From a virus: a DNA stretch of 36,566 bases. A program made the translations under genes and the position numbers. Below are positions 316 to 36,566 of this stretch, in pieces. The notes under the pieces were generated by a model. The model was not told the DNA's origin. It ran no database searches and saw nothing but the letters and a program-made list of their open reading frames with translations. Position 1 is the first letter of the stretch, and every line of letters begins with the position of its first letter. The stretch spans positions 1 to 36,566 of the IMG/VR virus record IMGVR_UViG_3300012041_000044; one strand, written 5' to 3'.

Positions 316-676
316 CTTTTCTTCCTTTTTAAATGAGTAGTCGGCCCCATAAGCACGATGTGGCGAGAACCCAACAGCTGACGCTCCTACACTCGCCGTC
401 CCACTTTGGGGCCAACTATGATCGCCATATAGCCTATAGAAGTAGAATGCAACATGTAACACGCTTGTCATACTTGCAACTTTATGATAGACGGGAATGG
501 CCGGTTAGGTGTAATAAAAGTTCCATGCAAACATTTCAGCCCATTACGTTTAGAGCCGATCCACCTCTTATTCGAAAGTTAAAGAGGCTTAAGAACTATG
601 GGGCATTCATTCGTACGACACTTAGATCGGTCGTTGGCCTTTGCCCGGTGTGTGGGGCGAAAGTGAAAGTGAAGAA

Positions 677-1576
677 ATGATTAGAAGTCTATTGCTCACG
701 ATTCTCTTTCTTCAAGGATGTCTAAAGCTGATAGATGATCCAAACCCAACAGCTTGGCAGCAAAACTATGCCACCTTAGAGGTTGCAACGTCTGAGAATC
801 ATTTTCTTGGTGTCGCAAGCCTCCTTGTTCCAACCGGCGAAGTCTCAGACACTTGTTTCGTCGACATCTACACACAAGGTCACGGCACACTTGGACTCCA
901 CGGATGTGGAGAGAGACGCGCTATTGTTCACGCCGATTGGGAGGTTATTCGGATCTCTTGTAAGGATCTGTTCGGGGACAAAGCGGAAGACACTGAAACT
1001 TGCGTTCTATCGATTACAGACGCGTTCCGGTATCCAGAACAAGAAAAGCAGAAAGTGGCGGTCCATCCAGTAGTAGCCCATGTTTCATTCTTCATTACGA
1101 ACCCATGCTGTCTGCTCGATATAGAAGAAAGAGTTGGGATTCATCACCTGCAAGCTCCGGAATCAGAAGAAACAAGCGTTAATATTCTGACTCCATTTAC
1201 GAGCGGTGAATACCTCTCTGCATGTGGATCAGAGCAGCTTCAAGGGACGTTTACAGGAGCAACATTCAACCTAACACCCCCTAAGAGCGAGTTTGGAGGC
1301 TGCACCTGGTTTGTGGCCGTAAATGGGGATAACGAAGGCAGAGTGGGTGCAGTATTTCGAAACGTCTATAAGAGAAACTATGTGCACATGGGGACCCCTA
1401 GGATCGTTATTGAAGATGATCAAATGATCATTGAGGCCGACAAGTTCTCCTCCTTCATCAGGGTTAACGATCAGCTGTTTAATAATCGGAAGGTCATAAT
1501 GGAATATGATGCGTCTAAGCAATACATGATTCGCACCTATTCGAATAAGGGAAGAAACACGCTCGATGTTCGTTAG
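677..1576 (+). CDS. Putative secreted lipoprotein, Cys-rich, function unknown
   Basis: An internal ATG of ORF 641..1576 gives MIRSLLLTILFLQGC, a signal peptide with a lipobox-like LQGC. It is the first gene of a plus-strand block divergent from the early operon. Confidence 0.6.
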   Translation: MIRSLLLTILFLQGCLKLIDDPNPTAWQQNYATLEVATSENHFLGVASLLVPTGEVSDTCFVDIYTQGHGTLGLHGCGERRAIVHADWEVIRISCKDLFGDKAEDTETCVLSITDAFRYPEQEKQKVAVHPVVAHVSFFITNPCCLLDIEERVGIHHLQAPESEETSVNILTPFTSGEYLSACGSEQLQGTFTGATFNLTPPKSEFGGCTWFVAVNGDNEGRVGAVFRNVYKRNYVHMGTPRIVIEDDQMIIEADKFSSFIRVNDQLFNNRKVIMEYDASKQYMIRTYSNKGRNTLDVR

Positions 1577-13720: not shown

Positions 13721-14794
13721 CTAAAACATTATAATATCTTTGTCGTACTTTGGATTGGTGAAAACTTCTTTAAGATCGAACTCTATCCGATTGAGTGTGT
13801 TACCTTTGATATCTCGTTCCTCTAAGAAGCTCTTCTCTGTCATTCTGTATGGAACAAGCGCATCCTTCAATGACATGTATTGGAACTGTCGAATGTTCCC
13901 CTCTCTATAGGCCCCAAGCAGCCCTTCAGAGCAGTTCACATACCGCCCTGGAACGGAGCATGCGATGTGGTCTAGATAAAACTTGAAGTTCAAATATGAA
14001 CCCCATGTTTTCCTTAAGTTACCGTAGCAATCTGGCCATACGATGTAATTACCCATATTGTCATAATGGGTTTTATAGGAATGAAATGTGTTGTTATAAT
14101 CGAAGCAGAAATCCGCACCAACAAAGTGAACTACATCTGATCTTAAAACTACTTTGGTAAAGTAAAGACAGGCTCCAAGCGCGTTTCCACCCGTTCCTAG
14201 GTAATGCTTAAAGTTCTCGATCTTATCTAACTCTTTCCTAAATCCCTCTTCAGGGATGAAACAGTTGAATAGATTAACATCGCCTTGCCAATCCTTGAAC
14301 AATTCAGGATGTGAACAGGTATAGGCAAGAAGTTTCTGCCCCTTTGTCTTATCCCAGTACTCTTGTTCTTTGCGTCCTTCATTAATATCACGAATTACGA
14401 TGTCACCTGCATCAAGTGTCATCCAGTAGTCGGCTTTGATTCCCTCATCCATGAAGTAGCCAAAGTTATGAAGACACGAAATAACGGTGAGAGGATTCCG
14501 CATCGATTGATTCTGTTTTAGCGCGTCAATCGAGTGTTTCAACGATGGGCCTGAGCCTGCAATTATCGATGGGACATATGGAGTGACAGATCCGTAAAGC
14601 TTGCCAACTGAGTGGTCATGGAATGAGCCGAACTTCTCTTTAGTTTGCGCGTATTGCTTCAGCCAAATATCATGCCATGTCTTAATGGTAATCTGGTCGC
14701 CCTCACAAGCTCTAGCAAATATATTCCCTTGAGATGCGGGCGGGCCATCAATAAGAGGTTGGTAGATAAGGTCTATGTCTATGTTTCGAAGCAT
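13721..14794 (-). CDS. Maf-like (DUF115 / MptE-like) putative nonulosonate glycosyltransferase
   Basis: IIAGSGPSLKHSIDALK ... VISCLHNFGYFMDEGIKADYWMTLDAGD ... GTGGNALGACLYFTKVVLRSDVVHFVGADFCF matches my memory of the DUF115 core: GxGPSL, then (P/A)D(Y/F)..xxD, then G..a...A..lG...i.l.G.D. Confidence 0.55.
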   Translation of the reverse strand: MLRNIDIDLIYQPLIDGPPASQGNIFARACEGDQITIKTWHDIWLKQYAQTKEKFGSFHDHSVGKLYGSVTPYVPSIIAGSGPSLKHSIDALKQNQSMRNPLTVISCLHNFGYFMDEGIKADYWMTLDAGDIVIRDINEGRKEQEYWDKTKGQKLLAYTCSHPELFKDWQGDVNLFNCFIPEEGFRKELDKIENFKHYLGTGGNALGACLYFTKVVLRSDVVHFVGADFCFDYNNTFHSYKTHYDNMGNYIVWPDCYGNLRKTWGSYLNFKFYLDHIACSVPGRYVNCSEGLLGAYREGNIRQFQYMSLKDALVPYRMTEKSFLEERDIKGNTLNRIEFDLKEVFTNPKYDKDIIMF

Positions 14795-22421: not shown

Positions 22422-22768
22422 TAACCACTGGTCTCCTCTTCACCGAAACCAGTGATATTGAGTGCATTCGCAGTGCCTGAACGGAAGAGCAATCTGCCCG
22501 TTTTATTGCTCATAAGCCAACATGTGGCCCACGAGTGAGTTGAATTCGCGGGGAGGGCCACGTCATAAGCGAGAGCATTTGATGTGGTCGCAGAGGTCCC
22601 GTTGTCATTGATGTGAATCCTATAGGTCGCAGCAGACGCGGTTACATTGCAGACTTCGACTCTTAAGATTTTGGTAAATATGAAGTTAGATTGCGCCGGG
22701 ATATAAACAATCATCGCATCAGTCGACGACGGGATATTCTGAAATAACTGCCCCCTAAATACTGGCAT
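22421..22768 (-). CDS. Small beta-rich protein downstream of the portal
   Basis: 115-aa ORF whose start overlaps the portal stop. Confidence 0.55.
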   Translation of the reverse strand: MPVFRGQLFQNIPSSTDAMIVYIPAQSNFIFTKILRVEVCNVTASAATYRIHINDNGTSATTSNALAYDVALPANSTHSWATCWLMSNKTGRLLFRSGTANALNITGFGEEETSG

Positions 22769-24627
22769 TACTTCGCTGCCTTTGCGGCTTCCGCTTGCAT
22801 GCCTTGTTCTTTGGCTTGGGCTGCTTGAGCTTGCATGCGCTTGATGACTTCTTGGTAGGCTGGCCAGTCAACGTTTTTGAGAAGTTCTTCTTGGTCAATT
22901 GCTCCTCTATCGAAGTATTGGAAGGCCGTTTGACTCTTTTGAACTTTCGCGAATGGTAAAGCAGACCCAGAGGTGACACGGACATCGGGAACCCCCTTTA
23001 TTACCACATCATGTGACTCTTCTATATCTAGCGCACCCGAACCATCGGTACGTAGGTATCGAATCTTCGCAACTTTCTGCCCGTTTTCATAAGTCGGGAT
23101 ATACAATTCTATTGCCTGAGGATATCCATCTGCATTAGTTAGACGAAACACCCTAGGCTCGGTGTAACACTGAAGGATCTTTCGCAATACCAGATCTCCA
23201 ATATCGTGCAGGAACTTTTCTAAGAAGCGGTTCTTATAACGAGGGCGAGTTTGTGACGCCTCAACGTATCCTTCGAATAGAACAGCTGATGTTGCGCCTG
23301 GCTGATTTGCGCCGCGAGATGCGTCCTGAAGACCTTGAATCCTGTCCGCTATACCAAAGCCTTGATTTAGGATCTCGAATGATTGTGGAGCAATGGCTAG
23401 ACCGGGCTCTTGCCGATACCCGTTCATGTCTTGAGTCTCTACGACAAGCCCGGGCTCATTTGTTAAGGTCTCAACATCAATCCCGCTCTGAGAAGAAACA
23501 ATGATCCTTGGATTCGCGTTCATTCTGAAACAATCAAGAATATAGCTCCATGTATAATTAACGATCTTGTTTGGACCCTTCATGTGGGTTACTTCGTTTT
23601 CCCCTGCGTACTCTCTTGGGTATCCGTAGTTTACGAGCTTAGCGATTGGGAATAGGTCGTGGTCATAGGGAATCCACTCGCCCTTCTTCTTATATCCTGG
23701 TGGTCCGTCTCTAAGGATTACTGCGTTTGCTATTTCGATATATCGGCCGGTTGGGTATTTCTTCTTTAGGACGTATTCTTTTTTCCCAAACTCATCTTCA
23801 TTTACTAGTTCTTCGAGTGTATCGTCTCTAAGCCAGCAGCAAATCTTGAGGGTGAGGGGTTCTCCCCCTTCGTCATTGGGAGCAGAATCACCGGATGATG
23901 GGAGGCGAGAGGGAGAATAAGGGTCATAATTGAGAGCTGAGCGGTGGAAGACAGTTTGATCACTCCGCATCCGCATGTTCGCAATATCTTCCTTAATCTT
24001 CTCCTTCTGCTCTGGGTATTCATGTCGTAGCTCTGCCGTGGGAACAGGTTCTGCATATATGAAGTACCTGCACTTTCTTGTACCATAGTTAATGTCAGAT
24101 GCTCTTGGGTCCCAATAGCAATAAAATGGGTCAAGTACCTTAATGCATATGTCACCTAAGCCTTGTTCCAGATCTTCATCCCATCCTACTTGGGCGTGAG
24201 CTACGTGATAGATCTTCCCATCGATTAGTTCGTCTGAAACCATTTGGTTCCACGAGTACTTATCCCATAGATTTGCAACTACTTCTTTTAAGACTTTGGT
24301 GAAGGCGTCGTCAGAGAACTCTTGGCTTGTGAACTCGAACTTAGGACGCGCATCCGTTTGAATCGCGACCTCAGTCATGATGGATGCCCACGTGATGTTA
24401 ACAACCTCGTTAAATCGCCACCTGGGGCGTTCGACTGGCCATTGTTTACCGCCGATTACAAACTCGTAATTATAACGCCAGTCGGTATCAAACTGTCGTC
24501 GGTGGCGTTTAGCTCTCGTCATGAGCTCGTTAACCATCTTGATCACGTCTTTATCGGCTTCGGGTTGGTTGGGGTTTACCCCTTCGAAGGAAGAAACAAC
24601 TGCCTCGTGCTCGCTGATAATGGCCAA
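22768..24627 (-). CDS. Portal protein
   Basis: 619 aa following the terminase genes. The N-terminal RAKRHRRQFDTDWRYNYEFVIGGKQW...FNEVVNITWASIMTEVA pattern is typical of portals, and the tail is Ala/Gln/Lys-rich. Confidence 0.8.
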   Translation of the reverse strand: MAIISEHEAVVSSFEGVNPNQPEADKDVIKMVNELMTRAKRHRRQFDTDWRYNYEFVIGGKQWPVERPRWRFNEVVNITWASIMTEVAIQTDARPKFEFTSQEFSDDAFTKVLKEVVANLWDKYSWNQMVSDELIDGKIYHVAHAQVGWDEDLEQGLGDICIKVLDPFYCYWDPRASDINYGTRKCRYFIYAEPVPTAELRHEYPEQKEKIKEDIANMRMRSDQTVFHRSALNYDPYSPSRLPSSGDSAPNDEGGEPLTLKICCWLRDDTLEELVNEDEFGKKEYVLKKKYPTGRYIEIANAVILRDGPPGYKKKGEWIPYDHDLFPIAKLVNYGYPREYAGENEVTHMKGPNKIVNYTWSYILDCFRMNANPRIIVSSQSGIDVETLTNEPGLVVETQDMNGYRQEPGLAIAPQSFEILNQGFGIADRIQGLQDASRGANQPGATSAVLFEGYVEASQTRPRYKNRFLEKFLHDIGDLVLRKILQCYTEPRVFRLTNADGYPQAIELYIPTYENGQKVAKIRYLRTDGSGALDIEESHDVVIKGVPDVRVTSGSALPFAKVQKSQTAFQYFDRGAIDQEELLKNVDWPAYQEVIKRMQAQAAQAKEQGMQAEAAKAAK

Positions 24628-24644: not shown

Positions 24645-24956
24645 TTAAAGCGTGTATGGTTTACGTTGTCGCTTGACCGATTGCATCTTATCGCTACCGA
24701 CCGATTCGATCTTCATTCCGTACGTATCATTAGTTTTTCTAATAGTATCTTTTAGGTGATGATCGCTCTTAATCACCTTACCGAAGGCGTGAGAGTAATG
24801 GGCGTCACAGCCTTTGATTGCGAAGAGGGGTGGGCAGAACTGCATATCCATAGGTTGTTCGCATTCTCCGCAGAACTCTTTTTCGTCGGCACGTTTCATT
24901 GGCTTCATTACTTCTCGTTCTTGTCTGCAGTGAGTGCACCGATAGAGGTAGATCAT
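24645..24956 (-). CDS. Zinc-ribbon (FmdB-like CxxC...CxxC) protein
   Basis: The ATG at 24956 overlaps the TerL stop (ATGA). The product starts MIYLYRCTHCRQEREV...EFCGECEQPM. Confidence 0.6.
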   Translation of the reverse strand: MIYLYRCTHCRQEREVMKPMKRADEKEFCGECEQPMDMQFCPPLFAIKGCDAHYSHAFGKVIKSDHHLKDTIRKTNDTYGMKIESVGSDKMQSVKRQRKPYTL

Positions 24957-26272
24957 AGAGAATCCCAAGTCCTTCCTGATTTTACCCTTTTGCGAGGGTC
25001 AAATGTATCAATTTTTAGTGCTGATATACGAGTGCTTTTTACCCTCACCTCTTTATCCCATAGGTGCATCGTTCCAACTGTGAGGTATCGATCGCAGTCC
25101 ATCAAGTGATCGTTAAGTGGAACGGGCTTCTCGGTCTTATATGATCCCTCGTCTGTCTCATCATAGTGGTAGGTCTCATACTCATCTAGCGTGTGCGGGA
25201 GTTGAGAGGCGAAGAGCATGAAGCGGTTCGACTTGATGAGCTGAACGTGCTTGAGGATGCCGGCCTCTACTCCTTTAAACGATTCTCTTCCGACTTGGAA
25301 GCCAGAGGCTTGAAGACCCGACTTGTTAAAGGCTTCGATCATGTCAGGACGAGCTGGATCGCAATAGAAATGCTCTATGTTGTATGTGGCCTTCTTGCTT
25401 CGTGCGATCTGCACTTGTCCGTTTGGATCGAGGCCTGCTTGTTTGAACTCAGAGACATCGTAGACATAGCCACTGGGAGTGAAGGCGCGGACCTTGAGGC
25501 CGAACTCATGGCCTTCGACGAAGCCGAAGTCTATGCCTGCGAAGTATCTTGTTCCAGGCTCTAGGGTTTTAGGCTTGATAAGAATCTCTGAAGGAAGTTC
25601 ATAAACAAGGCCTGCCATCCTTTCGTGTTTTCCCATGAATTTGCGGCGGAACGTCCTAGCATCAAGAAGCTGCCTTTGGCGTTCGAACTCTTCTTTTGGG
25701 AACGAAGGGTTTTCATCAGACGAAAATTCAACATAACAGATATCCTCCCTCTCCTTGTTCTGAAATGGCTTGATCACCTCATGGAACAGCCAGTTTAAGG
25801 CATATGGGGTAGATGTGTAGATGGTCTTCCCCCCGAGTCTTGCAACTCTAGCCTGACAGTTTACTTTAAAAAGTCTAGAGCATTTGCCTGCTTCATCGAT
25901 CCAAGAGTGGGCACAGTCTGGGATACCTTCGACCTGGTCTGGATCGGTTGCCGTACGAAAGTAGACGAAGCCACCGTCACGCAAGATGAACTTCGAATCC
26001 TTGGCATTATAGTAGCCATAGGCTTTGGTGAAAATTTTCTTAAAAGTTGGAAGGAGTGATTGTTCTAGGATCTTGTAGGTGGGTGCGCCTACGAGGAAGT
26101 TGGCATTCGGGTATTTATTAAGGGTAATGAGTCTAAGAAGTGCGATTGACCCCCAAGAAGTTTTTCCACCTTGTATGCCACTGACAAGCGCGATCTCTCG
26201 AATGCGATCATTTGTGAGTGCTTGGTAGGCTTCGTTTTGGAACTTGTGGAGTTTGAATCGTTTGTCTTCCAT
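24953..26272 (-). CDS. terL: Terminase large subunit
   Basis: 439 aa with a Walker A-like VSGIQGGKTSWG, then WIDEAG (Walker B-like) and a C-terminal nuclease-like FYCDPARPDMIEAF. It lies between TerS and the portal. Confidence 0.85.
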   Translation of the reverse strand: MEDKRFKLHKFQNEAYQALTNDRIREIALVSGIQGGKTSWGSIALLRLITLNKYPNANFLVGAPTYKILEQSLLPTFKKIFTKAYGYYNAKDSKFILRDGGFVYFRTATDPDQVEGIPDCAHSWIDEAGKCSRLFKVNCQARVARLGGKTIYTSTPYALNWLFHEVIKPFQNKEREDICYVEFSSDENPSFPKEEFERQRQLLDARTFRRKFMGKHERMAGLVYELPSEILIKPKTLEPGTRYFAGIDFGFVEGHEFGLKVRAFTPSGYVYDVSEFKQAGLDPNGQVQIARSKKATYNIEHFYCDPARPDMIEAFNKSGLQASGFQVGRESFKGVEAGILKHVQLIKSNRFMLFASQLPHTLDEYETYHYDETDEGSYKTEKPVPLNDHLMDCDRYLTVGTMHLWDKEVRVKSTRISALKIDTFDPRKRVKSGRTWDSL

Positions 26273-26663: not shown

Positions 26664-26975
26664 TCATGATCTTTTAGGTTGTTCGTCTGCTAGTTCTTGC
26701 TTATAGGTTCGTGCATCAATGTTGCGGATAACACGAGCAGTCCGATCTTCGAGAGTTATATTACTTTGGAGCCCTTTTACTGGGATCTTGCCCAATCTAT
26801 CGACTGTAAACTCAAGTGTTTGCGTGAGCTTGTCTATCGACAGTTGATGTGACAGCAAGGAGGACTCCATCTTTTTTTGTTTCACGTGGAACCGACACAC
26901 TACGACAAATAGTGAGATTATGCTAAACCATAGTAAACTTGCTATAACTTGAGTGGTTATCACTCTAATCTCCAT
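26664..26975 (-). CDS. Membrane-anchored helical protein
   Basis: 103 aa with an N-terminal TM (ASLLWFSIISLFVVVC) followed by a helical region. The architecture resembles 31572..31883. Confidence 0.5.
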   Translation of the reverse strand: MEIRVITTQVIASLLWFSIISLFVVVCRFHVKQKKMESSLLSHQLSIDKLTQTLEFTVDRLGKIPVKGLQSNITLEDRTARVIRNIDARTYKQELADEQPKRS

Positions 26976-27526
26976 CCTTGACTCAAGTAACTATCTCTCA
27001 GCATTTCGATGAAGTGGCAGTCTACGTATTTACCGAACTTGAAGTATCGTTCTCTTAAGGTTCCGCAGCGTTTCATTCCTATGCGTGTGAACAGGTCGAT
27101 GGCGGGATTCAAGTCGAACGTTTCGCCCCAGATAGAGTGTAGGTTTAGTTGATCGAATCCGTAACGGAAGAGTTCTTTTAGTGCGAGCTCTCCCCATCCT
27201 TGTCGGTGGTATTTGGGTGCGATAAGTAGAGAGAATTCGGCGTGTCTATGTTGATGGTGAATTGAGGTAAGTCCGCATGTTCCGACGATCTCGCCGATGC
27301 TTGGGCCTTGGCCTTCTCTTAGTTTTGTTGACAGTACTTTCACGCCGAACATTCTAACGGTCGAGTCTTGGGTTACGCGTTCGAACCAATTGTGCATATC
27401 GAACTCATTGATGATTCCGTTTTGTCGCGTCCATCGGTTAATACGTGAGTCGTTACGCCAGGCGAGTTGATCTCCTGCAATCTCGTGAGTCAGTTCAATC
27501 TTGTTTATTTTTGGGGATAGGTCCAT
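26960..27526 (-). CDS. GNAT N-acetyltransferase, PseH/RimL-like
   Basis: Contains AWRNDSRINRW...MHNWFERV (the WRN...H..W pattern of PseH-like enzymes) and the acetyl-CoA motif RQGWGE in KYHRQGWGELALKELFRYGF. Confidence 0.7.
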   Translation of the reverse strand: MDLSPKINKIELTHEIAGDQLAWRNDSRINRWTRQNGIINEFDMHNWFERVTQDSTVRMFGVKVLSTKLREGQGPSIGEIVGTCGLTSIHHQHRHAEFSLLIAPKYHRQGWGELALKELFRYGFDQLNLHSIWGETFDLNPAIDLFTRIGMKRCGTLRERYFKFGKYVDCHFIEMLRDSYLSQGWRLE

Positions 27527-27771
27527 GTTTTCTTGATATAGACGATCTTTCTATATTCTATGTTTTGGTATCCGGTTTCCGAGTGTTTTTTAGAGACAAA
27601 TCTATGGGTTAAAGGGAGTTCATCTCTTAGTTGTTCGAATTCACTTGGGGATAACCATACCGCTTTTGGGCGTTCGTTCCAATGAATTGCGACAATTGCT
27701 GCAGCGAATTGACCAAATCCATCTTCTTCTAGCGATCTGGCCTTTTCGTTCATCTGGTCAGTGACGGTCAT
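27505..27771 (-). CDS. Hypothetical protein inside the sugar cassette
   Basis: 88-aa ORF overlapping both neighbours. Confidence 0.5.
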   Translation of the reverse strand: MTVTDQMNEKARSLEEDGFGQFAAAIVAIHWNERPKAVWLSPSEFEQLRDELPLTHRFVSKKHSETGYQNIEYRKIVYIKKTWTYPQK

Positions 27772-28991
27772 CTTTTAAAGCTAGTTTCGGGTGGTTTTCC
27801 TTCTAGTTTCACTTCGTTCCTAGTGATCTTCCCTACGACATCGTTTGCGATGTTCATTACTCGTTCGTCTATCCCCTCCTCAAGGTGTGCGAAGTTATAA
27901 TAGAAGGCTTTACCGATCAGCACACCGCTTTTACACATCTCTTGCATGAAGAGTTGGGACGCATCGGTTGTGATGTCTAGCTGAGCTCTGGTTCCGTAGC
28001 CAACAAACTGGATACTCGGGTGTAGTTTGTTTAGGTTTTTAATAAGCTTCGAGCCGTAAAAGTTAAGATCGTGGAGTGACTTTTGTTCTATTTCGGTCAT
28101 GGTGGCGAGCGCTGCTGCTAATGATAGGATCTCTCCTGAGTAGGTGGATGAAACGAAGTAGTCTGAGTCGTTCATGATGTCGGCTTTGCCTGCGACGACT
28201 GCTAGGGGCATGCCGTTGGCGATTGCTTTACCTAGAGTGATGATATGGGGTTTTAGTGAGAAGTAGTTGCTTATGGTGAAGCGTGGGACTCTAAATCCTG
28301 TTACGATCTCATCGAAGATGATGGGGATATCTTGTTTTGCTTTTGCGAATTCGAACAGTCTATTTAGTTCGCTCTTCCTATGATCGTTTAACTCAAGCTC
28401 TACGGGTTCTAAGATGATACCTGCACACCACTTAATGTAGGTATCTGAGGCCTTAATGATCATATCATCTATGTCTTTAAACTGAGTCATTTTAAGCGTT
28501 AGAGAATCTGGAACCCCAAGGTGTGGAGCGGTGAGAGAGGTCCAACTATCTCCGTGTCCGTGATATCCGGCCGATAAGATCTCGTAGTCTCCACTTGCCG
28601 CTCTTGCGATCCGTATTGCCGCGAGTGTGGCTTCGTTGCCAGTCTTAAGAAACCGGATGCGTTCTGCTGCAGGGATGAGCGTTTGAATCTTTTCTGCTAC
28701 TTGCACCTCTAAGATGTGGGGAAGCGAATGAGAGGCGCCCTTAGATGCGGCGTCCCTTATGCTTTCAGTTACTTTTGGGTGATTATATCCAAGGATGTTC
28801 ACCCCTAAGCCAGAGATGAAGTCGATATACTTGTTACCCCATGCGTCCGTTAAGTAGCAGGCGTTACCAGAGACAACATGAGATGGGTAGATGCCATCTA
28901 TGAAGTGGGTATGACGTTTTGAGTTTGTTCCTGGGAATCCTTGCGCTAGCGAGTCGTTAGCACGTTCTACCCATTCCTCTGTTACCTTCAT
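27768..28991 (-). CDS. Class III PLP aminotransferase (glutamate-1-semialdehyde aminomutase-like)
   Basis: 407 aa with YLTDAWGNKYIDFISGLGVNILGYNHPKV, GNEATLAAIRIARA, FDEIVTGFR and the PLP-lysine context ITLGKAIANGMPLAVVAG. Confidence 0.75.
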   Translation of the reverse strand: MKVTEEWVERANDSLAQGFPGTNSKRHTHFIDGIYPSHVVSGNACYLTDAWGNKYIDFISGLGVNILGYNHPKVTESIRDAASKGASHSLPHILEVQVAEKIQTLIPAAERIRFLKTGNEATLAAIRIARAASGDYEILSAGYHGHGDSWTSLTAPHLGVPDSLTLKMTQFKDIDDMIIKASDTYIKWCAGIILEPVELELNDHRKSELNRLFEFAKAKQDIPIIFDEIVTGFRVPRFTISNYFSLKPHIITLGKAIANGMPLAVVAGKADIMNDSDYFVSSTYSGEILSLAAALATMTEIEQKSLHDLNFYGSKLIKNLNKLHPSIQFVGYGTRAQLDITTDASQLFMQEMCKSGVLIGKAFYYNFAHLEEGIDERVMNIANDVVGKITRNEVKLEGKPPETSFKR

Positions 28992-29646
28992 ACCAATTCC
29001 TTGCTGCTTCTAGAGTTTCTTTTGTATCGATTGAGAACTTATCGATATGAACCATCTTGCCCCATCCACCATTTATCATCTGTTTATATGTGAACCCATC
29101 TTTCTTCATTTCATCGCGCCTATGGTAGCAATGATCGAAAGCAAAGAATGGATGCTCCCTATTATCTTCGTACTTGTCGTAATACTGAAGAAACGGCAGT
29201 AGGCATACTTGCACATCTTGATCTTCTGGATAAGAACGCATGATTGTGTTTGAGCAATACTGGGTTTCAGTCTTTAGAAGAATATCAATAGCCTCGACGA
29301 TCACTTGTTTGTGGATGAACGGACAATCTGCGGTAATGCGAACGATCACGTCGGCATGTTGTTCAGTCGCTGCTAGCGAGTATCTTGCGACGAGATCGTC
29401 TTCTTCGCAGTGTAGACTGGAATATTCAAGACCGTGATTAGCGCAAAACTCACCGAGCTTTTCGTCCTGGACCGTTCCGATAACGATTGGTTTACATTCA
29501 CCCCAAAGCTTAGTCGCTGTTTCTGCAGCCATTTTAGAATTGAGGTAACACCACTCTAAAACGGATCGCTCCCCGATCATCTCATAGATCTTACCTGGGA
29601 GTCTTGCTCCACCGCTTCTTGCTTGTATGCCGATCAGGATCTTCAT
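28957..29646 (-). CDS. Cytidylyltransferase (CMP-sugar synthetase, PseF/SpsF/NeuA-like)
   Basis: The N-terminal MKILIGIQARSGGARLPGKIYEMIG matches the IpAR.gS.RLPGK signature of CTP_transf_3-type enzymes. Confidence 0.7.
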   Translation of the reverse strand: MKILIGIQARSGGARLPGKIYEMIGERSVLEWCYLNSKMAAETATKLWGECKPIVIGTVQDEKLGEFCANHGLEYSSLHCEEDDLVARYSLAATEQHADVIVRITADCPFIHKQVIVEAIDILLKTETQYCSNTIMRSYPEDQDVQVCLLPFLQYYDKYEDNREHPFFAFDHCYHRRDEMKKDGFTYKQMINGGWGKMVHIDKFSIDTKETLEAARNWYEGNRGMGRTC

Positions 29647-29873
29647 TCCCCAAGTTCTCGCTTTAAGTGTTCGATTACTTCTGCGACTCTTCCCTCTTCG
29701 AATAAATCCGCAACCGATCTATGTCCGAAGCACGCGTGAGTAGAGAACCACCACTTTTTAGCCATTTCTTCGTTGAACGAGAACTTCTTCATTGTTAGGT
29801 AGTTGGCGAGCGCTTGGTTCTTCACACTGGATGCCCAGCTTCTATTGGCCGTATTATATTTTCCTCTCTTCAT
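29643..29873 (-). CDS. Small protein with a DUF2384-like (Xre/MbcA/ParS antitoxin C-terminal) motif
   Basis: EEMAKKWWFSTHACFGHRSVADLFEEGRVAEVIEHLKRELGE resembles the a..Wl..p...lgg.sP.dll....G...v...L.ri..G pattern. Confidence 0.35.
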   Translation of the reverse strand: MKRGKYNTANRSWASSVKNQALANYLTMKKFSFNEEMAKKWWFSTHACFGHRSVADLFEEGRVAEVIEHLKRELGE

Positions 29874-30601
29874 CTTTGTCCGTACTCAGTCACTTGGTTG
29901 GCTACATAGAGGTGTACAGCATCGGTCATGTCACAAGCCTCTTCTAGACCCCAGAGCTTAGAGCGGAAGTAGGTGTTCGGGTTTAGAAAGTGGGTAATCA
30001 TCTCGACGTAAGAGTCTTCGATATCACGAAGTGAGACGTTCACTGAATCGTTGATATAGACATCGAACCTTGGGGATTCCGTCTTAAATGAGAGCGCGCA
30101 TTTAAGTTTACGTGCTAAGTGAATTAGCTGGCAACAATCCCAAACCATGTAGTCGCTCCCGTGGTTAAAGTAGTTATATGAGATTTTATTGATTCCTGTT
30201 TTCTCTTTATCTGCTGACTTTGGTTCCCACTTAAGCATTACCTGAACGATTGCACGTTCCCAGTTATTAACTACATAGCCCTTCACATCGTTCTTCAGAG
30301 CAAGGTTCATCACATCTTTGCACTCGCTCATGTTCTTCGATAGTGGCTTCTCGACTAAGAACTCCCTCTTAAGAACGATCATCTCTTTGCAGATTGCAAC
30401 GTGAGTGTCCGTAGGAGTGGCAATAATGGCTTTTTCAAACTCCCATGCCCTCCAAGGCATCTCTCCTTCGAACGGATCTAAAACATCGTAGGTGATAATT
30501 GACAGATCTTTGTGAGCAACTTCTACAGATTTAAGGTACTTAAGGATGGCGAGGTATCGTCTTCCGATTCGGCCTTCGTGTCCTAAGAGTAATACCTTCA
30601 T
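29870..30601 (-). CDS. Gfo/Idh/MocA-type NAD(P)-dependent sugar oxidoreductase (short)
   Basis: Has an N-terminal Rossmann MKVLLLGHEGRIGRRY, then AIIATPTDTHVAICKEM and the family's EKP motif in FLVEKPLS. Confidence 0.6.
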   Translation of the reverse strand: MKVLLLGHEGRIGRRYLAILKYLKSVEVAHKDLSIITYDVLDPFEGEMPWRAWEFEKAIIATPTDTHVAICKEMIVLKREFLVEKPLSKNMSECKDVMNLALKNDVKGYVVNNWERAIVQVMLKWEPKSADKEKTGINKISYNYFNHGSDYMVWDCCQLIHLARKLKCALSFKTESPRFDVYINDSVNVSLRDIEDSYVEMITHFLNPNTYFRSKLWGLEEACDMTDAVHLYVANQVTEYGQR

Positions 30602-31575
30602 ATTACCTCATCGATCATGGCATTTAACTCATCATCATTAATGGCTCTGGCATTAAGGGAGGTAAATTCTTGTTTGATTGGGCTTCCACGCTTCTTTGCG
30701 GGGAACAGGTGATAAGATGGCCATATGATATATCGATCCTCTAGCTCGGTTGTCATGGCGATCTCGTCTTTCGAAATGAGAACCTCATGCATCTTTTCTC
30801 CGGGTCTTACGCCCACGGTCTTTAGAGCCTCTCGCTCGAACACATAATCTTCTCTTGAAACCCCGAGTCTCTTAACCATGGTCTCAAACAGATACTTCAT
30901 CGTAGTCGCCTTCATTTTCGGGACGAACACCTCGGCTCCACGTGAGTCCTCTAAGCATGAGACCACAAACTTGGCGGCATCTCCCTTAGAGATGAAGAAT
31001 CGGGACATGTCGTAGTGGGTTATCTGAATTGATTCTCTTTTTTTAAGTCTCTTGGCCCAAATGGTTGCGACTGAGCCTTGAGAACCAAAGACATTGCCGT
31101 ATCGCGCGACCGAGAAGCGAGCAGTTCCACCCCCGATGTTTGCCTGAATAAATAGCTTCTCCGCAACAAGCTTTGTTGCTCCATAGACGTTAATTGGCGC
31201 AACTGCTTTATCTGTCGATGTAAAAATTGCTCTCCCCACCCCCATCTTCTTGCAGGCTGAGATAACGTTCCCAGTGCCGTGAATATTAGTTTTAACTGCT
31301 TCATCTGGATCGTACTCCGCTTTATCTACATGTTTCATGGCTGCGAAGTGAAACACCCACTCAGCTCCATTCACAGCACGTTCTACTCGTTCAGCGTCTC
31401 TAATATCGCCAATAAAGAAGTCAAGCTTAGATGACGTAAGCTCTCTCGCCATTTCGACTTGTCTATGCTCGCCACGAGAGAGAATACGAATGCGATTGAT
31501 ACGGGGATTAAGGAGAAGCTCTTTAACCACCTCTGTTCCGAGCGTTCCGGTTCCACCGAGAATTGTAACAATCAT
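30598..31575 (-). CDS. UDP-GlcNAc 4,6-dehydratase (PseB/FlaA1/CapD-like extended SDR)
   Basis: ILGGTGTLG (TGxxGxxG), FFIGDIRD, FHFAAMKHV, TSTDKAVAPINVYGATKLVAEK (DK...YxxxK), FSVARYGNVFGSQGSV and VRPGEKMHEVLIS all closely parallel PseB/FlaA1 as I recall it. Confidence 0.8.
   Translation of the reverse strand: MIVTILGGTGTLGTEVVKELLLNPRINRIRILSRGEHRQVEMARELTSSKLDFFIGDIRDAERVERAVNGAEWVFHFAAMKHVDKAEYDPDEAVKTNIHGTGNVISACKKMGVGRAIFTSTDKAVAPINVYGATKLVAEKLFIQANIGGGTARFSVARYGNVFGSQGSVATIWAKRLKKRESIQITHYDMSRFFISKGDAAKFVVSCLEDSRGAEVFVPKMKATTMKYLFETMVKRLGVSREDYVFEREALKTVGVRPGEKMHEVLISKDEIAMTTELEDRYIIWPSYHLFPAKKRGSPIKQEFTSLNARAINDDELNAMIDEVI
31171..31202. repeat. Exact 32-nt direct repeat, copy A (inside the dehydratase gene, over the APINVYGATK codons)
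   Basis: ctttgttgctccatagacgttaattggcgcaa is identical to 35617..35648. Confidence 0.95.
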
Positions 31576-31883: not shown

Positions 31884-31889
31884 CTCCCC

Positions 31890-31918
31890 TATATATTAAC
31901 CACGACAAGAATGGTCAA
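31890..31918 (-). promoter_or_regulatory. Sigma70-like promoter for the long minus-strand operon
   Basis: The minus strand reads TTGACC-17 nt-TATATA, followed by ggggagATG. The -10 ends only 6 nt before the first ATG, so the transcript may be leaderless or the second ATG (31874) may be used. Confidence 0.45.
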
Positions 31919-31993
31919 CGAATTAGCGCAATAATGTCCTACCTTAGTCATCCCCATCGGGTCATTTCGCAGTGTTACGTATGGCATACAGCT

Positions 31994-32002
31994 TGCTATA
32001 TA
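31994..32002 (+). promoter_or_regulatory. Extended -10 promoter element for the plus-strand block
   Basis: TGCTATATA (TGn + TATATA) lies 22 nt upstream of the ATG at 32025, with GGAGAAGGAG between them. The -35 is weak. Confidence 0.35.
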
Positions 32003-32024
32003 CGTATGGAGAAGGAGACCAATC

Positions 32025-32228
32025 ATGAAGCCAAATGCCTACGTAATTGAAACGCTCTCAGGAAGCCTGCAGATCACAAGTCAAACATACCCAAAAGACA
32101 CGACCGTCTATCTAAACCTCAAGATGATCTCAACTGAGGGAAGAGTCAGAATTGAAGAGTTTAATGTTGCTATGGATAAAAGAGACCTAAAACAACTGGC
32201 AGCGATCTTTGCAACTTTAGCAAAGTAA
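32025..32228 (+). CDS. Hypothetical small protein
   Basis: 67-aa ORF with a good RBS, followed by a hairpin and T-tract. Confidence 0.6.
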   Translation: MKPNAYVIETLSGSLQITSQTYPKDTTVYLNLKMISTEGRVRIEEFNVAMDKRDLKQLAAIFATLAK

Positions 32229-32236
32229 ACTGTCAT

Positions 32237-32280
32237 GGGTTGGGGGGCCAAGGATTGGTCTCCTAACCCCTAACCCTTTT
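32237..32280 (+). terminator. Intrinsic terminator / attenuator-like hairpin
   Basis: gggttggggg ... cccctaaccc (10 bp with one G-U pair) is followed by TTTT, then by AAGGAGG of the next gene. Confidence 0.45.
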
Positions 32281-32295
32281 AAGGAGGATTCTATT

Positions 32296-32478
32296 ATGAA
32301 GTCACTATTCGCTCTAATCGCGTTCACTGCAGTCATTATGAACTCTAGCTCGGTTTCTTCGCAGCAGATCGTCAGCGGCTATCTACGTTCGAATGGCACC
32401 TATGTAAGCCCCTATATCCGATCGACTCCAGACTCCTACAAGTTCAATAACTATGGCTGCATGACTCCGAAGCGTTAA
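32296..32478 (+). CDS. Small secreted peptide
   Basis: 60 aa with AAGGAGG upstream and the signal peptide MKSLFALIAFTAVIMNSSSVSS. The mature part (GYLRSNGTYVSPYIRSTPDSYKFNNYG) resembles a repeat motif common in small secreted bacterial proteins. Confidence 0.6.
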   Translation: MKSLFALIAFTAVIMNSSSVSSQQIVSGYLRSNGTYVSPYIRSTPDSYKFNNYGCMTPKR

Positions 32479-33164
32479 ACTCTCAGTGCCTTGGAAGGGG
32501 AAAAACATGGAACAAGAGACGTACGAATTGATCGATGGGCTGTTTTATATCGTACTGCGCTAGTTTACCGCTCTGAAGCTCTTTTTTTTTCTTCTGTGGG
32601 AACTTTGATAGGTACCGATATAAGTTAGTTCAGATCTTAACTTCTTGGGTTTGGTGACTTCTAAGTTGGTACAAGAGCTTGGGTTCCCGAATGCTCAGTA
32701 CGATATAAGAGAATACAGAAGAAGAAATCATTAGAAGAAAAGGATGACCAAGCTCCCGCTGGTCGCTTGGCTCATATCGGAGGTGCTTCGACAAGATGCC
32801 CAGAGCCTGAGCAAGAGTGCGGGTAAAGCCCTGTATTCAAAGCGCAAAAGCCACTTTGGATAGAGGTATACACCCACCAGACTGAACTTATTTCATTCAA
32901 GTCCAAGCTTAAGTAACAGGTTCTCATGCCCGTCACCGTCGCAGTCGGCGTGCTGTGCTTTAAACCAGGACTTATTTAACGACATCCCTGGTCAGGTGAC
33001 AGAAACCCGTGCCCTCTGTCGGAGAATTCTCTTGAGCTACTTGGGAGTGTGTGGGACTGTTCCTGCACAAGCCCTAAGTAGCTCAAGAGAGTTCTTACGT
33101 AAGAGGCCTAAGAAGTCGAATAGATTTCTAGGCCTCTTGCGCTTTTATTTCTAGATGAGTATCC
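32479..33164 (+). other. 0.69-kb ORF-free, dyad-rich region (candidate large structured RNA, leader/attenuator or origin)
   Basis: No ORF of 60 aa or more on either strand in an otherwise tightly packed genome. It contains several long-range complementarities and ends in a strong plus-strand terminator (details in findings). Confidence 0.35.
33101..33151 (+). terminator. Rho-independent terminator
   Basis: aagaggccta...taggcctctt is a 10-bp perfect stem, extendable by 3 more pairs. It is followed by gcgcTTTTATTT, 14 nt before the VRR-NUC start codon. Confidence 0.6.
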
Positions 33165-33551
33165 ATGCGGTCTAGCGGGTCAGTAAAAGAACGACACATT
33201 GAGGCATTAATTGGGGATTATTTGAAGATCTCCAAAATCTTCTTCTTTAAGTGCCCCATGTCCGGTTACTTCGATACTAAACCTACATGGGGTTTACCTC
33301 GATTCCGTCCCCACGCCTCCCCCTACGTTCGCAACGGAACCCCAGACCTTATCGCTGTTATCAACGGTCAGTTCATTGGATTCGAAGTAAAGTCTAAAGG
33401 AGGGAAACAGTCAGACGCACAGAAATCCTTCCAGATCGACGTAAAAGCTGCAGGTGGCATGTACTTCTTAGTTAAGTCTCTGGAAGATGTGCAGAAGGCT
33501 CTCAGTTCGTTAGGACTATGTAAAAGTATCTATCCAGAGGCCTTGAGTTAG
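33165..33551 (+). CDS. VRR-NUC domain (PD-(D/E)xK) nuclease
   Basis: NGTPDLIAVINGQFIGFEVKSKGGKQSDAQKSFQIDVKAAGGMYFLVKSLEDV matches the VRR-NUC pattern G.PDl....g...fiEvK...g.ls..Q......G.....v.s.ed. Confidence 0.6.
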   Translation: MRSSGSVKERHIEALIGDYLKISKIFFFKCPMSGYFDTKPTWGLPRFRPHASPYVRNGTPDLIAVINGQFIGFEVKSKGGKQSDAQKSFQIDVKAAGGMYFLVKSLEDVQKALSSLGLCKSIYPEALS

Positions 33552-33763: not shown

Positions 33764-33775
33764 ATGCTTATTAAA

Positions 33776-33829
33776 GGGACGAGAGGGGACTCGAACCCCC
33801 AACCCAAGGCTTGTGAGCCTTACTCTACC
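33776..33829 (-). other. tRNA 3'-half-like element (T-arm plus acceptor 3' strand plus degenerate anticodon and D segments); not a complete tRNA
   Basis: The minus strand reads GGTAGAGT-AAGGCTCACAAGCCTT-GGGTT-GGGGGTTCGAGTCCCCT-CTCGTCC-C. The T-loop is canonical (GGTTCGAGTCC). The anticodon-arm equivalent folds as a 6-bp stem with a 4-nt loop. No 5' acceptor or D-stem partner is present. Confidence 0.35.
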
Positions 33830-33835
33830 TCTTTT

Positions 33836-34063
33836 TTATTTAATATCCCATCGAAGGTTTTTAATTTTATTTGTTTTGTTTATTCGCAAGCTGTTTGGCT
33901 CGAGCGATAGCGCCCTCTCTACTGTCCAATTTCTTTTGAATATCCGATCATTAATAAGCGTAGGAGCCCATCCCCTTGTTCGAGCCCACTCGGCAGCTGT
34001 TTTTGTTTCCCCATTATATGTGAGCCATCGAGTGGTTCTTCTGTTCTCGCATTGTTCTTTCAT
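33836..34063 (-). CDS. C-terminal piece of a split or truncated phage protein (NC.W...EQ..N.R...TYNGETKT..EWA family)
   Basis: Starts MKEQCENRRTTRWLTYNGETKTAAEWARTRGW. The same frame upstream of the ATG reads SKGYFKENCKWST, so homology continues upstream of the annotated start. Confidence 0.5.
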   Translation of the reverse strand: MKEQCENRRTTRWLTYNGETKTAAEWARTRGWAPTLINDRIFKRNWTVERALSLEPNSLRINKTNKIKNLRWDIK

Positions 34064-34362
34064 CGTTGACCATTTGCAGTTTTCTTTAAAGTATCCCTTT
34101 GATCAGTACAGCGATTCATCATTCCATACCAACATGCGTACTCTCTGGTTTGTGAAAACCCGTGCTTCGGGTTAGATCGACATTTTCCTATATAACAAGA
34201 ATTTCTAAAGCCATTTCTCCTGTTAAACTGTAATGCTCCGGTTCCTCGAAGGACCGTCTCGCCACAATCACAAACACAAACCCACGTTCCTTTTACGCGC
34301 TCTCTCACCACAAGAGATTCGAATCTTTGGCCCTTTAGATTTATAAAAGCCGGCATAATCAA
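34060..34362 (-). CDS. N-terminal piece of the same split or truncated protein (Cys-rich)
   Basis: LKGQRFESLVVRERVKGTWVCVCDCGE...SCYIGKCRSNPKHGFSQTREYACWYGMMNRC is the N-terminal pattern of a common phage family. The ORF ends by an ATGA overlap with the next one. Confidence 0.5.
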   Translation of the reverse strand: MIMPAFINLKGQRFESLVVRERVKGTWVCVCDCGETVLRGTGALQFNRRNGFRNSCYIGKCRSNPKHGFSQTREYACWYGMMNRCTDQRDTLKKTANGQR

Positions 34363-34541
34363 ATCTTTATGCTGGTCACGTAGTGCAGGACATTAAAAAT
34401 TCTCAGTAGCCATAGGACTAAAACTATAACCAACGTGATATTCAAAATCTTTTTAACAGTCGCTTCCATGGGGATTAAATTAATTAGGTAAGCCACGATA
34501 CCAACGACTCCGACCGTGATGATTAAGGTTATTAAGCTCAT
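34359..34541 (-). CDS. Small two-TM membrane protein
   Basis: 60 aa and almost entirely hydrophobic (LITLIITVGVVGIVAYLINLIP ... ITLVIVLVLWLLRIF). Confidence 0.55.
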   Translation of the reverse strand: MSLITLIITVGVVGIVAYLINLIPMEATVKKILNITLVIVLVLWLLRIFNVLHYVTSIKI

Positions 34542-34873
34542 TTTTTCTCCATCTTCGTTAATCTCCGCTCATGGTCGTTGAGGATGTTGAATATTTTATC
34601 GATGTATGGGAACACAAGCGGAGTGCCGTTATTCCTAATCGGTTGATGCCCATCCTTCGGCTCATCCTCGATAACCCAATCATCTGATATAATATCCAAT
34701 GCGGTTAAGTTAAAGGAGGTAACTTTCTCGAATTCATCTAACCAGAGACTCCATTCCTTTCTCTTAAACCTCTTCCCCGACTTCACTGCCTCAATCAGAG
34801 TCAACGCATATTCCTCGTTGTTAAATGGAATGCCGTAAACCCCACTACAATCCAAAATATAAAAACGCCCCAA
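34538..34873 (-). CDS. DUF2829/Tad2-like small protein (candidate anti-Thoeris sponge); start uncertain (TTG)
   Basis: YALTLIEAVKSGKRFKRKEWSLWL ... LTALDIISDDWVIED resembles the DUF2829 pattern f.eAl.alk.GkkvrRk.W ... DlladDW.i. The middle is shorter than I remember for the family. Confidence 0.35.
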   Translation of the reverse strand: MGRFYILDCSGVYGIPFNNEEYALTLIEAVKSGKRFKRKEWSLWLDEFEKVTSFNLTALDIISDDWVIEDEPKDGHQPIRNNGTPLVFPYIDKIFNILNDHERRLTKMEKK

Positions 34874-35039
34874 GTAGGAACCGAGTCGTACGCATCAGCC
34901 ATCATATGCAGCCATGCTCTCATTAGAATGGCCGTCTCGCATACAATCCAAAATATAAAAACGCCCCAAGTAGGAAGCAAGTCGTACGCATCAGCCATCA
35001 TATGCAGCCATGCTCTCATTAGAATGGCCGTCTCGCATA
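34846..35039. repeat. Tandem duplication, two 96-bp units (94/96 identical) plus 2 nt
   Basis: 34846..34941 matches 34942..35037, with mismatches only at 34881/34977 and 34883/34979. Confidence 0.95.
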
Positions 35040-35253: not shown

Positions 35254-35445
35254 CTATTCCTGCGGCTTATCCCTGAAACAAACGAGGTTATATATCCCGC
35301 CCACAAAATCGCCTCCACATTGTTCAACCCATCGGTTGGCCCAATCGAGGATGGTTAAATCGCTATAATAATTGCGCATCATGTTCACTAAATCCTCAAG
35401 TCCAGGATGGAGTGCCGCAAGCTCATCGATGGACTTCCAACTCAC
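35254..35445 (-). CDS. Hypothetical small early protein
   Basis: 63-aa ORF with a 4-nt overlap with the upstream gene. Confidence 0.55.
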   Translation of the reverse strand: MSWKSIDELAALHPGLEDLVNMMRNYYSDLTILDWANRWVEQCGGDFVGGIYNLVCFRDKPQE

Positions 35446-35678
35446 TCCTCACCTCTAATTTTCTTTAGGGCTTCTGCGCTAACGAAATTAGCCCAGTCAC
35501 CAACGGGATATCTATTTTTCAACATCATAAGAGCCTCTATCGCTGTCTCAAGACGAGAAAGAATAAATGGGATGTCATCTACCTCAATATCGACGCCCTC
35601 TTCGTGGTTAAGAAGCCTTTGTTGCTCCATAGACGTTAATTGGCGCAATCGCGCTTTTATTTCGTCTAGCCTATTCAC
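35442..35678 (-). CDS. Hypothetical small helical early protein (GTG start); contains 32-nt repeat copy B
   Basis: 78-aa ORF with 4-nt overlaps at both ends. Confidence 0.55.
   Translation of the reverse strand: MNRLDEIKARLRQLTSMEQQRLLNHEEGVDIEVDDIPFILSRLETAIEALMMLKNRYPVGDWANFVSAEALKKIRGEE
35617..35648. repeat. Exact 32-nt direct repeat, copy B
   Basis: Identical to 31171..31202. Here it is read in a different frame (RLRQLTSMEQQRL). Confidence 0.95.
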
Positions 35679-36026: not shown

Positions 36027-36566
36027 CTATTCGTGCTTTGGAACACCCGCTTGATAATCCTTAAATGAAATCTTCTCGTTTAAGTATCGGGTCACTCGCT
36101 CTATCTGCTCAATCGTTAAATCACCACTTCTAGCTTGTCCGTATTCATTGAATATGAAGACACCCACTTCTTCTGGCTTCCATTCAGACTGCTTCTGCGC
36201 CTCATAGAGTGCTCTTATAGCTAGTGTTTTTGGGTCATTCTGCGGAACCGCCTTAGGTGCTTGTTTTGCTAATTGCGGCATTCTACGTTCCTCCTCAATA
36301 ACGTCCATTTCGTCTGCTGATACCTCACTCCCACCCACTAGATTCATTACAGCACGGTTAAAAGCTCGGCTGTGCGCCGTACCTCTTGCTACGTGTGCTG
36401 TCACTTCTCTTCCCTTTTCCTTCGTATTACACGCCCCATCTCCATCGGCCTCTGCTCCATTAGGGGCTGAGGCTCTATAGATAATCTCATAGGTAATCGT
36501 CTTATTTTCTTCCGCGACCCTATGCTCTGTATGAACAACCACGGAGAGGTTAAAGAACTTGGCAAT
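36027..36566 (-). CDS. C-terminal part of the putative single-strand annealing (Rad52/ERF-superfamily-like) protein that starts at 315 across the junction
   Basis: The frame is open to the window end and is continuous with 1..315 through the terminal repeat. GTAHSRAFNRAVMNLVGGSEVSADEMD resembles the conserved helix plus G-G plus acidic tail that I associate with phage SSAPs. The functional call is tentative. Confidence 0.4.
   Translation of the reverse strand: MAKFFNLSVVVHTEHRVAEENKTITYEIIYRASAPNGAEADGDGACNTKEKGREVTAHVARGTAHSRAFNRAVMNLVGGSEVSADEMDVIEEERRMPQLAKQAPKAVPQNDPKTLAIRALYEAQKQSEWKPEEVGVFIFNEYGQARSGDLTIEQIERVTRYLNEKISFKDYQAGVPKHE
36444..36566. repeat. Terminal direct repeat, copy 2 (identical to 1..123)
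   Basis: Exact 123-nt match to the window start. Confidence 0.95.

Follow-up and report, generated by a model that had tools for sequence, protein, structure and literature searches.

Lambdoid phages carry leaders of the PR'-6S RNA-tR' kind, and their tR2/tR3 terminators are located ahead of the nin region with its RusA/NinG-type resolvases. The early mRNAs of T7-like phages carry RNase III processing hairpins and 3' stabilising stem-loops. Another described system is the ori region of lactococcal Ceduovirus phages such as c2. This region separates the divergently oriented early and late blocks, encodes no protein, makes the non-coding PE1-T transcript, works without phage proteins, and occurs as three sequence-unrelated types among related phages (PMC7150918). 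In addition, the ROOL/GOLLD RNAs share with the locus described here a size of about 0.6 kb, a phage context, and the absence of an ORF (PMC12286853). The present analysis compares these systems with a 686-nt gap between genes in a viral genome, and indicates that the gap is a known kind of element, namely a strongly terminated non-coding region of the regulatory or origin type.

The window, meaning the whole stretch of 36,566 nt that was analysed, is a complete circular assembly of 36,443 bp, of which positions 1-123 recur at 36444-36566 (123-nt overlap). The genome is that of a podovirus-like phage of the SU10/P22-portal type in which an endolysin gene was also found and no integrase was recognised. 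Nearly all genes are carried on the minus strand, and the gap belongs to a small plus-strand island consisting, in order, of p67, p60, the 686-nt gap, and the VRR-NUC gene, opposite to the rest of the genome. The features needed below are as follows.

22768-24627: portal gene
24953-26272: large terminase gene (TerL)
26960-31575: pseudaminic-acid-like sugar gene set
32025-32228, plus strand: p67
32237-32269, plus strand: 15-bp hairpin between p67 and p60, ahead of the p60 SD
32296-32478, plus strand: p60, a small secreted protein with a signal peptide
32479-33164, plus strand: ORF-free non-coding region of 686 nt (the gap)
32507-32563, plus strand: 18-aa mini-ORF MEQETYELIDGLFYIVLR, read from the sequence, translation putative
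32545-32560, plus strand: helix 1 (long-range helix), 5' arm, found in the MFE fold and in the centroid fold alike
32576-32597, plus strand: AAGCTCTT plus T9/pyrimidine tract, pairing with 32673-32680
32693-32708, plus strand: helix 1, 3' arm of the long-range helix
32709-32746, plus strand: purine-rich tract with AGAAGAA repeats, partner of the pyrimidine tract
33020-33098, plus strand: 33-bp hairpin with one bulge, one 2x2 internal loop, and four G.U pairs
33098-33151, plus strand: intrinsic terminator, 19-bp stem-loop and U-tract, ending 14 nt before the VRR-NUC ATG
33165-33551, plus strand: VRR-NUC / PD-(D/E)XK nuclease gene, directly behind the terminator

The gap is truly non-coding. Its longest ORF is at most 54 aa, each of the six frames contains 7-14 stops with all three stop codons represented, and the 3-periodic Markov coding score, trained on the phage's own genes, is at most 1.2 vs 5-11 in the flanking small genes. 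A tblastn search of the gap against 6000 ORFs from related loci returned no match. Stops, coding score, and tblastn together rule out a hidden gene, a pseudogene, or recoded stops, the last of these because all three stop codons occur in every frame. As the first-pass annotation had stated, the gap is the only long one, with no other stretch of at least 300 nt lacking an ORF of at least 60 aa in the whole window, and it holds only tiny ORFs, namely the 18-aa mini-ORF and a 39-aa one at 32744-32863. The former is preceded by a weak SD-like GGAAGGGG and lacks a coding signal, and its stop falls immediately after the 5' arm of helix 1. A leader-peptide attenuator, one of the functions suggested earlier, does not fit this arrangement, since the T9 run has no terminator hairpin ahead of it and the true terminator is 540 nt away from the mini-ORF. 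For annotation purposes, the gap is neither a missed gene, nor an assembly error, nor a known ornate RNA.

Nearly all of the thermodynamic signal of the gap is held in its last 150 nt (33010-33160, z = -10.96), and a genome-wide scan identified 33001-33200 as the strongest-folding 200-nt segment of the genome. The stem reported earlier at 33024-33042 and 33076-33094 is present and is in fact part of the 33-bp hairpin, with a predicted energy of -53.7 kcal/mol on the plus strand (z = -9.6) vs -41.5 kcal/mol on the minus strand. Directly abutting this hairpin is the intrinsic terminator that had likewise been recognised from the sequence, with its stem at 33098-33141 followed by CUUUUAUUUCU and energies of -30.5 kcal/mol (z = -6.2) on the plus and -22.9 kcal/mol on the minus strand. 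It has the make-up of a rho-independent terminator, a stem-loop and then a U-tract, on the plus strand only; a simple terminator scanner missed it owing to a limit on loop length. Relative to the minus strand, the plus strand stabilises the hairpin by 12 kcal/mol and the terminator by 7.6 kcal/mol. Moreover, the two stems contain five non-Watson-Crick pairs, every one of which reads G.U on the plus strand and A.C on the minus strand, an outcome with a chance of about 1/32 if transitions were neutral. At least the 3' module is therefore transcribed and selected as plus-strand RNA, because the G.U pairs and the U-tract exist on that strand only and the energies favour it. The hairpin was also considered as a dispersed MITE-like element; its matches in IMG/VR were at about chance level (an estimate) and none extended beyond 20 nt.

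The gene behind this module encodes a protein matching the Pfam VRR_NUC profile (E = 4e-4), PHROG 93 endonuclease (1e-14), and PHROG 5702 Holliday junction resolvase (5e-7), with the nuclease residues D61/E74/K76 conserved. It has no recognisable SD, and neither the stretch between the terminator and its ATG nor the rest of the gap yielded a sigma-70-like promoter, promoter scans and operator motif scans both being at chance level. Because a strong hairpin and terminator immediately precede a nuclease gene without its own SD or promoter, the reading ranked most likely, with a probability of roughly 0.38, is that the gap is a cis-acting non-coding leader or 3'UTR whose terminator gates read-through into VRR-NUC. 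Under this model, a polymerase starting upstream would traverse about 0.54 kb that encodes no protein and abounds in short complementarities, some of them mutually exclusive, and would next meet the 33-bp hairpin stacked on the intrinsic terminator, 14 nt before the VRR-NUC start codon. The terminator would cap the upstream mRNA, and only read-through transcripts would reach the potentially toxic nuclease. The long double-stranded hairpin may act as an RNase III site or as a block to 3' exonucleases, and the 5' body may modulate read-through by alternative folding, or may instead have a function tied to the single non-coding locus kept by most related phages. Both the start of the transcript and the control of VRR-NUC by read-through are presumed from the layout of the locus. 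A parallel design is seen upstream, where the 15-bp hairpin stands ahead of the p60 SD, and was counted for the gating model. Against that model, a simple terminator needs no 0.5-kb spacer, so that the 537-nt body and the similar gaps of relatives are left unexplained. The shuffle-like folding of the body and the chance-level promoter calls were also counted against it, as was the lack of an identified antiterminator protein or nut/put-like element.

The gating model has its closest counterparts among the lambdoid leaders, with which the locus shares the predicted order of a non-coding transcript leading to a strong terminator upstream of a resolvase-type nuclease, where downstream expression would need read-through. 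It differs in that the leader here would be 0.55-0.7 kb rather than about 0.2 kb, and in that the gated gene is located in a small opposite-strand operon and not in a late operon. A further difference is that no N/Q-like antiterminator homologue was found among the annotated ORFs, and no nut (boxA/boxB), put, or qut element was identified; by eye, a 7-nt boxA-like GCTCTTT is present at 32578-32584, with no boxB hairpin. As in the early mRNAs of T7-like phages, a long near-perfect double-stranded RNA hairpin with a small internal loop stands between genes on the transcribed strand, but here only one such site occurs, joined to a terminator, and its cleavage is putative.

The helix coordinates given in the first-pass annotation for the rest of the gap all check out. 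The 13-bp perfect pairing of 32545-32557 with 32696-32708 was recovered and can be lengthened to 16 bp if one mismatch is allowed (helix 1), the 8-bp pairing of 32576-32583 with 32673-32680 is present, and so is the pairing of 32589-32597 with 32715-32723, which stands in pseudoknot order relative to helix 1. Segment 32576-32597 has alternative partners in the purine tracts 32715-32727, 32720-32727, and 32733-32741, again in pseudoknot order relative to helix 1; the purine tract 32709-32746 is no outlier in a genome-wide scan for such tracts. The self-complementarity of the gap exceeds chance. The whole gap contains 12 perfect pairings of at least 8 bp vs 2.7 ± 1.5 in dinucleotide shuffles (z = 6.0), the gap minus its 3' hairpins contains eight vs 1.9 ± 1.4 (z = 4.3), and nine coding controls contain 0-3. 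The longest perfect segments are 15 and 13 bp, a 13-mer being reached in 1 of 200 shuffles. Several segments, TTATATCG, TTTCTTCT, and AAGAGCTTGG among them, have two or three alternative partners, and many of the pairings are therefore mutually exclusive. The excess of such segments was counted for the gating model.

Folding energies give a more restricted picture. The whole gap folds at -245 kcal/mol on the plus strand (z = -5.8) and at -216.5 kcal/mol on the minus strand (z = -5.6). The earlier description of the entire region as highly structured holds for 33010-33160 only; it fails for 32479-33015 (537 nt, 78% of the gap), which folds no better than shuffles (z = -0.74). Within this part, the 5' domain with the 16-bp helix (32530-32730) reaches z = -2.24, 6 of 200 shuffles folding equally well, with z-scores of -2.2 on the plus vs -0.7 on the minus strand, and the middle part (32731-33015) reaches z = -0.89. 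The whole-gap z-score, the plus-strand bias of the 5' domain, the long-range helix of 13-16 bp with its pseudoknot-order pairing, and the discrete terminator could together be read as a stand-alone, trans-acting structured RNA some 0.6 kb long, which would be a large phage RNA of a new kind, its 3' end protected by the hairpin and terminator. The analogous gap of one relative (L005), which resembles an isolated antisense unit with its own terminator, points the same way. This explanation is considered quite unlikely, given that the signal is lost without the 3' hairpins, that many of the segments exclude one another, and that no antisense target complementary to the gap was found elsewhere in the phage genome.

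Comparison with known RNA families also speaks against such an RNA. The first-pass annotation had likened the region to the ROOL/GOLLD class, a likeness that did not hold up. No Rfam family reached its gathering score in the window, the covariance models of ROOL, GOLLD, HEARO, OLE, and raiA included, and permissive scans of 2.2 kb and 761 nt gave only noise, namely eukaryotic miRNA-precursor models on the long hairpin. Rfam scans of two relatives (L005 and L087) at gathering and permissive thresholds returned nothing. Unlike the ROOL/GOLLD RNAs, the gap has no multi-domain conserved architecture and mostly no folding signal above shuffles; its folding energy is not well below that of shuffles along the whole length, as would be expected of a large ornate RNA. 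The nearby tRNA-like element mentioned alongside proved to be no more than a minus-strand fragment near 33775-33826, partial and resembling the 3' half of a tRNA, ARAGORN finding no tRNA or tmRNA gene in the window or in 13 related loci. A 15-nt tmRNA T-arm-like match (E = 0.13) was the only such signal.

Related loci were sought by VRR-NUC and TerL scans covering IMG/VR, metagenomes, and GTDB genomes, together with two protein database searches. An exact-protein look-up placed the same VRR-NUC protein on four contigs from at least three samples, in which the region is 100% identical, so that the four copies carry no variation. No nucleotide homologue of the gap was found by blastn in phage records or plasmids, and searches of the fetched loci (94, 175, and 4 in three rounds) with nhmmer and blastn recovered identical copies only. 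VRR-NUC and terminase yielded only distant relatives, the closest TerL being 60% identical. No diverged homologue suited to a covariation analysis was recovered.

Position is more informative than sequence in this group. Among relatives whose TerL is at least 40% identical and whose flanking sequence is long enough, most have a single long ORF-free gap, which lies in the early/recombination region, 6-9 kb upstream of TerL. Among the diverged relatives compared (TerL 40-56% identical), these gaps have no nucleotide similarity to that of the window or to each other, and T-runs are the only motif they have in common, a result that weighs further against a stand-alone, trans-acting RNA. Together with the gap of the window, they range from 448 to 942 nt.

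L005: gap of 596 nt
L007/L021: gaps of 682-938 nt
L087: gap of 594 nt
L015: gap of about 870-940 nt
L176: gap of 448 nt
L178: no long gap; carries a helicase

The genes adjoining the relatives' gaps encode RusA, Gp157, RecT, ERF, PD-(D/E)XK nuclease, and VRR-NUC. In L005, L007, and L087, the gap closes, like that of the window, with U-tract-bearing tandem hairpins encoded on the opposite strand to TerL, and the terminators each precede RusA, Gp157, or phosphatase/VRR-NUC genes. These tandem terminators were counted for the gating model. The adjacency of terminator and nuclease is not conserved as such, since VRR-NUC in L007 and L176 is on the other strand relative to the terminators. At VRR-NUC loci elsewhere, a gap of at least 350 nt beside the gene occurs in only 1 of 57 cases, and the gap is a feature of the phage lineage and not of VRR-NUC genes generally.

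The same comparisons bear on whether the gap is a functionless spacer, made of decayed gene remnants or a recombination scar, ahead of an ordinary strong terminator. A body without thermodynamic signal and without sequence conservation across relatives would be expected of a spacer, and between L007 and L021 the divergence of the gap roughly equals or exceeds the genome-wide mean (1% vs 0.5%). Phage genomes are compact, however, with no second gap of at least 300 nt here, and gaps of similar size recur in most relatives. Moreover, the excess of complementarity in the body alone (z = 4.3) is absent from coding controls, and neither a residual frame nor protein similarity is left of any former gene. 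A spacer without function is accordingly judged unlikely.

The main rival to the gating model is a transcription-activated replication origin of the type found in the lactococcal phage c2 (Ceduovirus) or in ColE1 RNA II. In that case, an early promoter would drive a non-coding plus-strand transcript as far as the terminator; this RNA would act in cis on the DNA, and host enzymes would start replication. Such a transcription-type origin is considered less likely than gating but more likely than the other rivals. It would suit a phage among whose annotated ORFs no polymerase, primase, helicase, or initiator was recognised, the recognised DNA-metabolism functions being of the recombination type only, as in most relatives (RecT, ERF, RusA, Gp157, PD-(D/E)XK). 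It would also suit the only non-coding locus of at least 300 nt in the genome, the excess of inverted repeats within it, and the retention by relatives of a single gap of 0.45-0.9 kb in the early/recombination region that is mutually unrelated in sequence. The Ceduovirus ori offers a published precedent (PMC7150918), which the locus resembles in being an ORF-free early region of several hundred nucleotides that is transcribed with no protein product, in having no dedicated initiator supplied by the phage, and in keeping its position among related phages while its sequence varies. The resemblance is incomplete in that host and phage family are unrelated (here an SU10/P22-portal-type podovirus).

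The position of the gap within the genome also departs from the Ceduovirus layout. The junction of divergent transcription is at 31884-32024, and the gap is located beyond p67 and p60, behind two small genes rather than between divergent promoters, which counts against an origin; the gaps of L007, L015, L087, and L176 do lie between divergently transcribed blocks, unlike that of the window. The relative that carries a helicase and no long gap (L178) was likewise weighed against an origin. Furthermore, classical origin signals were not encountered. The CTTCT repeats called iteron-like in the first-pass annotation were not recovered by a repeat finder. Among its ALTERNATIVES, an iteron- or DnaA-type origin finds no support, as the gap contains no iterons and no DnaA box (TTWTNCACA). 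The only direct repeat is one 19-nt pair at 79% identity, tandem repeats are absent, and there is no AT-rich unwinding element, the GC content of the gap (45%) being the same as that of the genome. GC skew is uninformative, the purine tract is unexceptional, and no similarity to plasmid origins was found.

A packaging or terminal region, that is, a pac site or a collapsed direct terminal repeat, had also been suggested in part. Many podoviruses have non-coding terminal regions, and the circular assembly with its 123-nt overlap does not mark the true ends. The breakpoints of two independent assemblies differ, and neither falls in the gap, which is 6.2 kb from TerL; candidate small-terminase ORFs adjoin TerL, and a pac site is unlikely at this 6-kb distance from the terminase genes. 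Selection for G.U pairs on the plus strand would be unexpected for a DNA site, and this explanation is the least probable of those considered, and very improbable in absolute terms.

With regard to the wider lineage, it may be, although this is doubtful, that these phages carry an undescribed class of hypervariable non-coding transcription units of 0.45-0.9 kb, transcribed in opposition to the structural operon, located beside resolvase or recombination genes and ending in tandem terminators, of which the copy in the window would be the most structured. Acting in cis, their RNA would prime replication, activate the origin, or regulate recombination-dependent replication. The lineage named for this proposed class comprises 36-kb podoviruses of the SU10/P22-portal type that carry pseudaminic-acid-like genes and encode no replication proteins. 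If the preferred reading of a leader or 3'UTR with a gating terminator is true, the gap represents ordinary phage gene regulation and is useful mainly for annotation. If the gap is an origin, transcribed and sequence-diverse origins of the c2 type would extend beyond the lactococcal siphoviruses, and the origin of a phage group without replication proteins would offer a handle on how minimal phages start replication.

Around p67, the small plus-strand gene at 32025-32228, a perfect 12-nt complementarity was detected between 32013-32024, the p67 ribosome-binding region (AGGAGACCAATC), and 32253-32264, comprising the loop and descending arm of a 15-bp hairpin (32237-32269) 3' of the gene. Judging from the sequence, this pairing would bracket the entire p67 ORF. 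The 141-nt divergent intergenic region also contained two exact copies of TACGTATGG (31976-31984 and 32001-32009, 25 nt apart), with no other exact copies in the genome, and the pair may serve as an operator. At 33093-33104, a palindrome of 12 nt with a related sequence, TCTTACGTAAGA, spans the hairpin-terminator junction of the non-coding gap upstream of the VRR-NUC gene.

Two further repeats were identified in the window. A tandem duplication at 34846-35037 (96-nt unit, 2.1 copies, 96-98% identity) falls inside the small early ORF 34801-35019 (minus strand), doubling a segment of its peptide. In addition, an exact 32-nt direct repeat has one copy (31171-31202) in the PseB-like sugar dehydratase gene and the other (35617-35648) in an early ORF of 78 aa (35442-35678), with a third copy of 66% identity at 34539-34570; it may represent a scar of recombination or a regulatory target.

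The stretch 33775-33826 looks like the 3' portion of a tRNA or tmRNA; it lacks a 5' half and has these parts:

Within 33775-33826, minus strand: anticodon-arm-like hairpin, AAGGC/GCCTT
Within 33775-33826, minus strand: T-arm, GGGGG-TTCGAGT-CCCCT
Within 33775-33826, minus strand: acceptor 3' strand

Directly adjoining it is an HNH homing-endonuclease gene (33836-34362) broken into two ORFs (34060-34362 and 33836-34063). Either a decayed tRNA gene or an attP-like core could account for the fragment; the analysis detected no integrase. The largest plus-strand ORF of the window (641-1576) belongs to a plus-strand block (333-2119) convergent with the lysis genes, carries a lipoprotein-type signal peptide (…LFLQGC…) if Met13 is the start, and had no match in Pfam, PHROG or PDB.

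Among GTDB species genomes, the sole relative found was L095 (CAZSZT010000063.1; large terminase 41% identical), a 7.7-kb contig binned in an uncultured Bacteriovoracaceae MAG, which provides a weak hint of the host. The gap of the related phage loci L007/L021 harbored three copies of TT(T/A)TTTCCACA, at these positions in L007:

1226-1236, same strand as the other two
1360-1370, same strand
1475-1485, same strand

The three copies are spaced 134 and 115 nt apart, and two of them match the DnaA-box consensus TTWTNCACA. The array is an origin-like feature; none occurs in the window's gap.

The window (26960-31575 and 13721-14794) and four related loci (L005, L176, L178 and L179) encode enzymes like those that make pseudaminic or legionaminic acid (PseB-like dehydratase, class-III aminotransferase, GNAT and cytidylyltransferase, with NeuB added in relatives), along with a conserved MptE/Maf-like transferase among the capsid genes. 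This gene content points to glycosylation of a protein of the virion or the host.
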